Source: Octopus vulgaris (lineage: Eukaryota). From it: a stretch of DNA of 64,000 nucleotides. The stretch spans positions 14,756,001 to 14,820,000 of the forward strand of contig OX597818.1 of NCBI GenBank assembly GCA_951406725.2, read 5' to 3'. Both the position numbers and the translations under genes were made by a program. Below are positions 40,751 through 44,499 of this stretch, one piece after another. The notes below the pieces were generated by a model, which was not told where the DNA came from, ran no database searches, and saw nothing but the letters and a program-made list of their open reading frames with translations. Position 1 is the first letter of the stretch. The number at the start of each line of letters is the position of its first letter.

Positions 40751-41399
40751 TGTTTGTTTGGATGTATAACGTTAATAAGCTCTATTACTTGATATCTGCA
40801 CCATTAGAAGCATATTTGTAGAACATTTTATTTCAAAATACCCGTTTTCCCTACACTTACAAAAAAAAAAAAAAATTCGGTGAGGCACTCTTGTGTAGGT
40901 GTGCCATATGTGTAAAAAGCATAGGGTCAAATAAGCCGTATACCATTTGCTAGAAATACCAGCCAACACACTACCGACTCACTCATCCCCATTCCATTTT
41001 CCGAAAATAAGTGCATTTATCTGCAGAATGCTCAAATTAATTCAAATAACACCAACAACCTGAAATATTATCAATTTTATATACTGTTTTCAGCGGTTAA
41101 CCTACAAACTTTGCTTTTTATAACGCCACAGATAATAACGTATGTGGGGGTGGGCTATATCTGTAATGAGCTCTATTAGTTTATATTGCTATAAGTATTA
41201 CTTATTTTACATTCGTTTTATATTTACATCTGTAGAAGATCAGTTTTGTTTTGTCTTGTTTTTGTTTTTATTTTGTTTGCTTTTTTTCGCTACTCACTTT
41301 CAGAATAGAAAGCGTAGATCACTTTCGTTTTTCCCCTGCCTTCCTTCAGAATACAGTCTCCAGGAGCTCCTCCTCATTGCCTTCCATTAAAAATAGTCG

Positions 41400-42214
41400 C
41401 TCCAATCATGCTTCTGCACAACTCTTCTCAACCAAAGCTGTGCAATTGCACAAGACTTGTTATGAAGAAATTAATGAGAAATCCCATAGAGATCACAATA
41501 ATTTCTGACTGCAGAAAAGGCGAAGATGTTTTTATTCCTCGCTTATCTTTAATACCTTCCAATATGCCCTTCGAGTTCGAACGACTTCAATTTCCAATAC
41601 GTCTGTCTTTTGCGATGTCCATTAATAAGTCCCAAGTTCAGACTTTGAAAGTTGCTGGTTTGCAATTAGTAGAGGACTGTTTCTTACACGGTCAGTTTTA
41701 TGTTGGAACATCTAGAGTGGGGAGCAAGAACAATCTTTTCAATTTTGCCCCTACTGGTAAAATCTGAAACATGGACTATAAGGAAGTTTCTATCAAGGAG
41801 TCAACAAACTAAAATTTTGAGAATGATTAATAACTTTGAGTCAACATCTATATTCGTCTTAGAAAATCTATTGTATTTTTGTTTGTTGTAATACTTAAGT
41901 GCAATCAATTATAGTACATATGTTTTTAGTTTTCCCCGAACTTTTATTTACTTATCTTGTGCTAGACATATGCCAAAGTCTGTGCGATGTTTGCTTCATT
42001 TATAGACTGAAATACTATAGGTCATAGATCAGAAGTTTATATGCATCCATGATAATTTTGGCCAGAAGAAAACAGCTCTATCGTCTACATGAAAGTTAAC
42101 AACTTTTTTTTATATATAATCAATACAATCTAAGTGAATAACTTTCAACATTCATAGTACAATTTTGGCAGCTTTTTTCTACCCAGCCCAGTCAATGACG
42201 GGTGTTTTTGCTAA
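41400..42214 (+). mobile_element. Helitron 3' fragment encoding a PIF1-like helicase C-terminus
   Basis: ORF 41408-41767 [22 protein letters not shown]...[11 protein letters not shown]; terminal hairpin CCCAGTCA-A-TGACGGG then CTAA. Confidence 0.85.
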
Positions 42215-43147: not shown

Positions 43148-44105
43148 ACCTACACCTTAGAGACATTCTTATCGATTTTGTAGAAATTTTACACGCGATT
43201 ACAGTTCATGCCCATTAGTTGATACCAGCATGAAGAGGGGGATTTTAGATTTTGAGCGGGGGATTTTAGATTTTGAAGAAAATTGACCCATGAGTAAAAT
43301 TAAGCACATCGACATATGAAACATCCATCATTCATATAATGTATTGGGATTTAAAATTCAATGGGATATTTTCATGTACATGGTCGCATGGATTATATTT
43401 TATGACATAACCTTAACACTTTTCTTCAGATTTTGCTGAGATTGGACACGCTGATCAATTTTGTACAGACGATGGCATTAAGGGGAGAGAAATAAACAAA
43501 CATCACTCTCAACGAGTCGAGGTACACCCAAAAGTTTGACTGCGATTTCAGATGGTCTAGTATGTAGGAATATGTCGAACATTTAACCGGGTAAAATCCC
43601 AGCTGAACCAGATATAACATCTTGATAGGTAATAGTTGGCACAGGGAACGTAGAAGATTTCAATACAAGGTCAGAGGTGGGCTTAACTTCAACACGGAAA
43701 GCACGAGCAAAGGCAGGTCCAACAGCAAGTATATAGAAGACCGGCCCGAGATCTGACATAGTACTCCACTCCCAGAATGCCAAGGAGATCCTCCTGATCG
43801 AACTCACTGTGCCTTACGAAAGCAGGATTGATGATACCCATGTCTACAAGACAGAAAAGTACGCCGACTTGGCCAGAGACTTGAGGGACGCTGGATTCAA
43901 AACCAAAGTCTTCGCAGTCGAAGTTGGCGTCAGGGGATTTGTAGGCTCGTCTGCCTACAGCCTCATGAAACAGCTGTCCATCTCTGGAAGAAGCAGAACT
44001 AGAACCTTGAGGGAAAAGCGGCGGATTAGGTCTCAAGTTGGATCTGGTCTAGGAGGAACAAAGGCCAACTTCATAAAGACTTAATTTGTCCCAATTCAAC
44101 CGAGT

Positions 44106-44176
44106 GCTAGATTGGCGTAGTCGTGTAGGCCTGCGCCTCTGGAGCCGGCGATCCAGGTTCGAATCCCGCTGGGACC
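44106..44176 (+). other. tRNA(Gln-CTG)-like sequence with Pol III A and B boxes; not a functional tRNA
   Basis: TGGCGTAGTCG A-box, CTCTGGA anticodon-loop-like, GCGATCCAGGTTCGAATCCCGCTGGGACC; stems do not pair fully. Confidence 0.6.
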
Positions 44177-44364
44177 GTGAGAAAAAAGAACCCTCGCACC
44201 TGGGTCGTCCGAACGCTCGCCAGATGAAAACGAGTACTTAGCCCTTCTCACGGCCGCAGCACACATCACAGAAGTGCTAGAAACCAGAGAGACCAATCCC
44301 ACCAAAGGCGTACTAAACAGACAGCAAGTCGACATCCGGAAGTCATGACTCGGATGTGGTCTGG

Positions 44365-44431
44365 CCTCCCTAGACTGTTAGGAGTTAAGGACCGAAACAC
44401 TTGCCTAAAGGGGGTTCCTCCTCTGAAGACC
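44365..44431 (+). ncRNA. Candidate permuted hammerhead in the RLE element 3' UTR
   Basis: CCTCCcTAGac TGT T AGGAG ttaaggacc GAA ACA cttgcCTAaaGGGGGttc CTCCT CTGAAGA; stem II poor. Confidence 0.5.
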
Positions 44432-44499
44432 ACCTGCTGTAACGCTCTCTCCGAGTTTCTTTCCACTATATATATATATTTACATAACAAACATATATA

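Follow-up and report, generated by a model that had tools for sequence, protein, structure and literature searches.

A predicted hammerhead ribozyme of new strand order in the 3′ UTRs of HERO-type LINEs, approached from a decayed copy in Octopus vulgaris

Results

A decayed HERO-type LINE and its tail

The window, a stretch of 64,000 nucleotides of Octopus vulgaris contig OX597818.1, contains the remains of a retrotransposon, the following parts of which lie outside the hammerhead fold described further below.

43735–44084, + strand: 3′ end of a HERO-type ORF with the RLE endonuclease domain, 5′-truncated at 43735; stop codon at 44082–44084
44106–44176, + strand: tRNA-Gln-derived unit with an A box (44113–44123) and a B box (44157–44167); cloverleaf lost
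44175–44253, + strand: middle region, closed by the long-range stem 44175–44183/44245–44253
44440–44467, + strand: 3′ terminal segment of the element and end point of most family copies; the TA repeat beyond it is flank

The ORF, which is frameshifted near 44010–44020 and whose RLE region is 38% identical to the Takifugu protein Q76IN2, ends directly upstream of the tail, as the preliminary description had stated. When the genome (2.8 Gb, 227 contigs) was searched for relatives of the element, the tail at 44090–44467 found matches at no fewer than 43 places with identities of 75–87%, 40 of the 133 candidates being scored. Forty-four distinct copies of this family, which we call family A, were gathered. 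As ORF sequence is joined to the tail in 30 of them and most end at the same 3′ point, the tail is part of the LINE. Three copies start just ahead of the tRNA unit, four near its +1 position and seven inside the UTR. The idea that 43735 is a 5′ end common to the family was rejected, as it is merely the truncation point of the window copy. The segment 43735–44467 is thus a decayed, 5′-truncated copy of an old, low-copy family of HERO-type LINEs.

Two details of the tail had been read differently before. The terminal TA repeat, listed among the parts of the tail, belongs to the insertion-site flank, and TA repeats open six of 20 family 3′ flanks. The nine-base-pair stem closing the middle region is present in the window but is perfect in this copy only, one of its pairs being private: position 44251 is C in the window versus G in 23 of 27 aligned family rows. 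The window copy also lacks 9 nt near 44224, within the middle region. Minimum free energy folding of the whole tail gave no signal (z −0.47), and no relatives were found among viral contigs. Elsewhere in the window, at 41318–41767, there is a Pif1 helicase fragment (PF21530), likely a Helitron remnant.

A hammerhead fold with a four-way junction

The 3′ part of the tail contains the blocks of a hammerhead, arranged in an unusual order.

44322–44331, + strand: helix X, 5′ strand, pairing with 44430–44439 (93% of cells paired over 28 copies; eight of ten pairs in the window)
44332–44357, + strand: hairpin Y, set between X and stem II without a gap (90% paired)
44358–44362, + strand: stem II 5′ strand, displaced upstream, pairing with 44389–44393
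44374–44384, + strand: block S, comprising the stem III 5′ strand, the NUH triplet and the stem I 5′ strand; predicted cut at 44379/44380
44389–44401, + strand: block G, comprising the stem II 3′ strand, GAAA (44394–44397) and the stem III 3′ strand
44418–44429, + strand: split block C, comprising the stem I 3′ strand (44418–44422) and the CUGANGA core (44423–44429)
44430–44439, + strand: helix X, 3′ strand, directly 3′ of the CUGANGA core

The strands therefore follow the order X5′-Y-II5′-S-G-C-X3′, with a four-base linker between stems I and II in family A, and since no spare base separates X, Y and II, the usual step from A9 to 10.1 is replaced by a four-way junction. Across 28 aligned copies of family A, 88% of cells are paired, and covariation within the family is weak. 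All core letters (CUGANGA, GAAA, NUH) are kept in the window and in 16 of the 28 aligned old copies. Loss of the tail from other copies or an unconserved core, which would have counted against the preliminary description, did not occur, as the tail is joined to the ORF in 30 of 44 copies and these 16 have an intact core. Its reading of the segment as a HERO-type LINE 3′ UTR, in which a tRNA-derived unit with A and B boxes is followed by a permuted hammerhead, is borne out. Of the hammerhead proposed there, the core and the cut predicted after 44379 stand, but the span of 44365–44431 has become 44322–44439, including the stem II strand at 44358–44362 and helices X and Y.

The window copy of the ribozyme is probably impaired. 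Two of its ten pairs in X are broken, one of them adjoining the junction, as is one of five in stem III; its cut triplet is GUU, versus a triplet ending in C in 25 of 28 family rows, and stem II has a U-A pair in place of the family C-G. With the X break beside the junction, the window copy failed the strict junction test.

Standard tools do not recognise the fold. An Rfam scan of 44060–44470 at E≤10 returned neither a tRNA nor a ribozyme, and the hammerhead types I, II and III gave no match in the window tail at E≤10 or in nine external loci at E≤0.5, the block order not being circular. Minimum free energy folding of the window ribozyme was also without signal (z 0.07); such null results for tail and ribozyme are expected, since the fold is pseudoknotted. 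Readings as an HDV-like, twister, pistol or hairpin ribozyme, judged by eye against consensus features, were dropped given the hammerhead blocks and the covariation.

The fold in other HERO-type elements

A protein search of the genome revealed further HERO families, namely family B, which has the same fold with different stems, and families C, D and E, which have decayed forms. Outside this genome, 87 loci were taken from contigs of metagenomes and of GTDB; they comprise the best 80 of 445 stretches that had been confirmed and seven further ones. The 80 of these 87 with at least 150 nt of 3′ flank were scored for the fold. The core letters in the order S, G, C occurred in 34 of these 80 loci, and the gapless X, Y, II junction, with different stem sequences, in the 3′ UTR of 27, both counts referring to this selection from the best 80 and the seven. 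The fold appeared in none of 800 shuffled and none of 80 reverse-complemented UTRs, and the junction in 151 of 3700 upstream shuffles. A descriptor made of helices only, and blind to the core letters, gave 19 matches, 16 of which contain exact CUGANGA, GAAA and GUH.

For a closer comparison, we used a non-redundant set of 23 external elements, from which the near duplicates L098 and L100, the weak L099 and L151, and L016, from the octopus genome itself, were left out. Pair types vary widely in all five helices of these elements; positions demanded by the descriptor are paired by construction. Stems I, II and III flank the core and covary, with stem II built by the upstream strand; its first pair is G-C in 21 of 23, and every one of the 23 has G-C as the pair that precedes the cut U. 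The variable hammerhead positions N7 and N17 vary as they do in hammerheads, N17 being C, A or U. The classical first pair of stem II after CUGANGA can form in just three of the 23. A sixth helix, between the II-III spacer and the III-I spacer, is found in all 23 and may correspond to the helix that links the outer sides of stems I and II in type-SGC hammerheads.

In a quick RLE tree of the octopus families, the external loci and the fish and oyster proteins, the junction is present in 26 of 36 scorable external loci of the group that holds families A to E and the fish and oyster proteins, and in one (weak) of 44 in the other group, the split being supported at 89. Families A and E share a clade with L116 and L119 (SH-aLRT 99 in the same quick tree). 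In this tree, which is without NeSL, R2 or R4 references, the octopus element groups provisionally with the Takifugu protein (Q76IN2/BAC82598.1, 38% identity), which we take to be HEROFr. We conclude that the hammerhead topology in HERO LINE tails is new, real and widespread, and probably active.

Several other structures were seen in the external loci. Four other-group RLE elements in DNA contigs (L126, L127, L164, L166) have classical-looking type-SGC hammerheads; L164, and with one extra base L126 and L127, look like classical ones. Elements of this kind are a possible source of the SGC RNAs of metatranscriptomes. A distant RLE group without the hammerhead has another conserved, covarying 3′ UTR structure, likely a pseudoknot, with double changes at ten of 25 pairs (L115 4445–4535, L130, L131, L137, L154, L156, L157, L159, L161); it has no Rfam match and is a candidate for a ribozyme of a new type or a recognition motif. 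Seven GTDB contigs labelled as bacteria or archaea (L165–L171) contain HERO-type LINEs, which are likely eukaryotic contamination of the bins.

Truncations at the predicted cut in a young family

Family B is a young HERO family with more than 500 near-identical copies and a head-to-tail unit of 3737 bp. It has a single intact ORF of 1091 amino acids, RVT_1 followed by RLE (RLE about 35% identical), and copies of the window's family match this ORF in pieces from residue 10 to residue 1083. The loci used were as follows.

L061 997–4464: family B locus
L062–L070: family B loci
L202–L235: family B loci

While 523 exact family B copies run across the predicted cut, nine start exactly at it, next to unrelated flank. 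With the same search design, control positions gave no starts at −6 and one at +8. A wider search produced 63 matches, comprising 27 true truncations and 36 internal deletions, and eight of the 27, mapped over about 47 positions, lie at +1 of the cut, with no other position having more than two. The binomial probability of this peak is 6e-8 for a position named in advance and 3e-6 over the 47 positions. Six of the eight are also among the nine cut-start copies. Cut-site starts were not found in family A, where few are to be expected and the power is low.

Because short family B copies begin exactly at the predicted cut, the HERO tail likely cuts the RNA of its own element. A reverse transcriptase stalling in a strong fold could also truncate cDNA, but its stops would hardly be expected to coincide with the scissile bond. 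We consider it very probable that the ribozyme is active in live elements. The cut-start copies amount to a few percent of family B, and cutting would accordingly be slow, reversed or bypassed, a view that also takes in the upstream tails described in the next section. L061 failed the strict junction test, having a run of five G versus six in other family B copies. This locus also has, at 600–790, an inverted duplicate of its own 3′ flank at the 5′ junction, and the 5′ UTR of L062 (4590–4730) contains five short hairpins that share one purine-rich loop. Similar hairpin repeats follow the tail in L109, L116, L118, L137, L144 and L161 and are perhaps protein-binding or translation signals.

Tandem units and a template model

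All 18 exact heads of family B are preceded by element tail and never by host flank. The tails ahead of these heads have scattered starts, 15 upstream of the cut, three downstream and none at the cut. We judged the kinship of tandem partners by counts of shared variants, as raw pair distances are confounded. In five of 13 tandem pairs, the partner is the unit with which the largest number of derived variants is shared (12 of 13 variants in L064, 28 in L227). At L229 and L231, a non-partner ties with or beats the partner in common variants, and in six young tandem pairs no variant is common to the partners, the upstream unit having zero to three. The flanks of 50 insertion ends resemble the tail-head junction in their first five letters, with matches of 56–100% versus a background of 24–30%, which could reflect the preference of the endonuclease. 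Among external loci with long flanks, six of 19 run on into the ORF of a next unit, and three contigs close on themselves. One contig of run X1, whose status as RNA is a guess, bridges the tail-head junction.

These arrangements suggest a model of the template. The cut would lie about 90–120 bases before the apparent 3′ end of the element. In active families, transcription would pass from one tail into the next head-to-tail unit; for family A, to which the window copy belongs, the promoter borne by the tail would be the A/B-box unit. Cuts at two successive ribozymes would then release an RNA of one unit length, with the cut as its start and with tail, head, ORF and UTR following in this order. 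Helices X, II and III would hold its two ends, which would either be ligated again to give a circle or be bridged by template jumping. Priming would take place inside the tail, at one fixed point, and the reverse transcriptase would copy back through the cut; by getting round into the tail again it would place part of a tail in front of every full unit, and by stalling at the nick it would produce an insert of about 120 bases that begins at the cut. We rate a conserved, non-circularly permuted hammerhead in the HERO 3′ UTR, likely cutting the element RNA, together with this scheme of unit RNA, at somewhat better than even, and the template model taken whole as an even call.

The alternative that survives best keeps the ribozyme active but gives it another task, that of a brake or a 5′-processing device on linear read-through RNA. 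Source loci arranged head to tail would yield tandem transcripts, from which copies would arise uncut, with neither a circle nor the crossing of a nick. The 15 of 18 upstream tails that pass the cut site would fit such transcripts, as would the private variants that young tandem partners do not have in common, and the ribozymes of R2 and L1Tc, in the accessible text of PMC6765202, merely free the element from a co-transcript. The same 18 tails speak against it as well: a single RNA with two uncut ribozymes would be needed, and none of the upstream tails has its start at the cut. Nor would this alternative account for the lack of heads on host flank, or for a fold in which helix X encloses the two cut ends. 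We regard this alternative as unlikely.

Less probable still is the view that the fold is a non-catalytic structure recognised by the HERO protein, at which the reverse transcriptase just stalls. The uncut fold is indeed present in most copies, and with the strand after CUGANGA sitting in helix X and the classical stem II pair possible in so few elements, a rule assumed by Eckert et al. in the part of their paper available to us (PMC10085705) is broken. On the other side, the upstream strand supplies a stem II that opens with the canonical G-C pair, the letters that do not vary coincide exactly with the catalytic ones, and the truncations peak at the scissile bond and not at the helix ends. 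A self-cutting fold remains our preferred reading.

The tRNA-derived unit

The segment with A and B boxes, likened to tRNA(Gln) in the preliminary description, is indeed identical at 40–44 of 72 letters to three tRNA-Gln genes of the genome, although ARAGORN found no tRNA in the window tail. A pattern from the 3′ half of the unit matched 22 genomic places, and the six tested that lie outside the LINE are tRNA-Gln genes. Five matches of the tRNA-Gln type are clustered within 12 kb at L305–L309 (G000:C1 153.01–153.02 Mb).

Other HERO lineages have similar units shortly before the ribozyme.

L091 2440–2610: tRNA-like A/B-box unit ahead of the ribozyme
L116 1872–1952: tRNA-like A/B-box unit ahead of the ribozyme
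L060, family E of the same genome: tRNA-like A/B-box unit ahead of the ribozyme, seen by eye

In L091, the B-box region itself seems to be paired with the strand after the hammerhead core. Family B, L119 and L102 have no such unit ahead of the ribozyme. T runs in the ORF bear on whether Pol III could read through it. The ORFs of the tRNA-bearing L091, L116 and L071 and of the window element contain no T4 run, where codon shuffles lead one to expect just 0.4–0.5 for L091 and L116; T runs are also scarce in other HERO ORFs, and L073 has four T4 runs.

The unit raises the question of a SINE. A genome-wide search with the tRNA head gave 47 candidates, and all 30 loci fetched are family A copies, which argues for the absence of a free SINE family in this genome; among these candidates and fetched loci, no amplified non-autonomous family starting at the tRNA head was found. 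Four of 44 family A copies start between −2 and +6 of the tRNA +1, versus about one expected from the density just upstream, a weak hint that they may be occasional Pol III-born copies. Of the two origins considered in the preliminary description, the fusion of a SINE to its partner LINE is not supported, and a LINE that launches a SINE from its tail receives slight support from the four starts but shows no amplification. For a tRNA SINE that bears a ribozyme and was either joined to the LINE tail or launched from it, one can cite the tRNA-Gln head with its boxes, these four starts and the pairing of a Pol III promoter with a hammerhead in SINE-like elements of Schistosoma (in the accessible text of PMC6765202). 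Such a SINE is highly improbable, and for this genome mostly refuted, given the small number of head candidates, the LINE nature of every one fetched and the ribozymes of HERO families without a tRNA unit.

Discussion

The closest relatives of the HERO fold are the type-SGC non-circularly permuted hammerheads (HRIMA-1 and variants) described by Eckert et al. in 2023 (PMC10085705). As far as the accessible part of that paper goes, the two have in common the block order S, G, C, the core letters, and a short linker between stems I and II, mostly 3–6 nt in HERO elements; each also has an extra helix outside the core, and the two helices may be equivalent. They differ in that block C of the HERO fold is interrupted between A9 and 10.1, which is assumed there to be impossible, and in that the 5′ strand of its stem II precedes S, with X and Y making a four-way junction. 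The same text knows type-SGC RNAs from metatranscriptomes only and from no genome of a known organism, whereas the HERO versions sit in chromosomal LINEs.

In their way of life, the HERO elements would resemble the Penelope-like elements, with their pLTRs, and the animal non-LTR retrozymes, which in the available text of PMC6765202 and PMC7229834 also have terminal hammerheads and tandem or partial-tandem copies. Circular RNA intermediates are proposed there for both, and RtcB ligation is shown for the retrozymes. Unlike HERO, those elements have type I hammerheads, and either the GIY-YIG machinery of Penelope-like elements or no protein at all (same sources and extent), whereas HERO elements are autonomous LINEs with RT and RLE whose 3′ UTR contains a pseudoknotted ribozyme. 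As with the 5′ HDV-like ribozymes of R2 and L1Tc, in the form in which the accessible text of PMC6765202 presents them, a self-cleaving RNA would define the 5′ end of the LINE template. The HERO ribozyme is of another class. With its place at the 3′ end of the inserted DNA, the RNA would be circularly permuted relative to the insert. The order of a Pol III promoter followed by a hammerhead, with the upstream unit driving the next, recalls Sm-alpha and Sj-alpha of Schistosoma, which are non-coding and non-autonomous in that same text; in the window's family, by contrast, the pair lies within the tail of a coding LINE and has not spread alone.

The single ORF with RT before RLE and the weak or microsatellite target preference agree with the HERO clade as presented in the accessible text of PMC3636483, PMC4640811 and PMC2790886, which makes no mention of a ribozyme, of a UTR unit derived from a tRNA or of head-to-tail junctions as an obligate feature. 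Our literature search found no description of a hammerhead in HERO or RLE retrotransposons; it covered freely readable papers, and prior notice in subscription papers or Repbase is possible.

The broadest statement that we would make is that the replication of HERO LINEs, as autonomous RT-RLE retrotransposons, runs through an RNA that is cut by the ribozyme, circularly permuted, ligated again and primed internally, with a seventh hammerhead topology on a four-way junction. In some lineages, a Pol III promoter derived from a tRNA would be added, and the 3′ UTR would thereby act as a one-sided LTR. We put this forward tentatively, as falling a little short of an even call. If true, it would add a hammerhead topology to the six permutations held to be possible, show that non-circularly permuted hammerheads reside in the chromosomes of animals and give the reason why Rfam and standard descriptors miss such hammerheads. 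It would also mean a life cycle like that of Penelope-like elements and retrozymes for an LINE of the R2 group. Target-primed reverse transcription as a rule starts at the 3′ end of the RNA, and internal priming in HERO would run against that rule. RLE elements are under development for gene insertion, and the design of templates for HERO proteins hinges on the template model. With more than 500 young family copies and dozens of natural variants at hand, each step of the model is open to direct testing.
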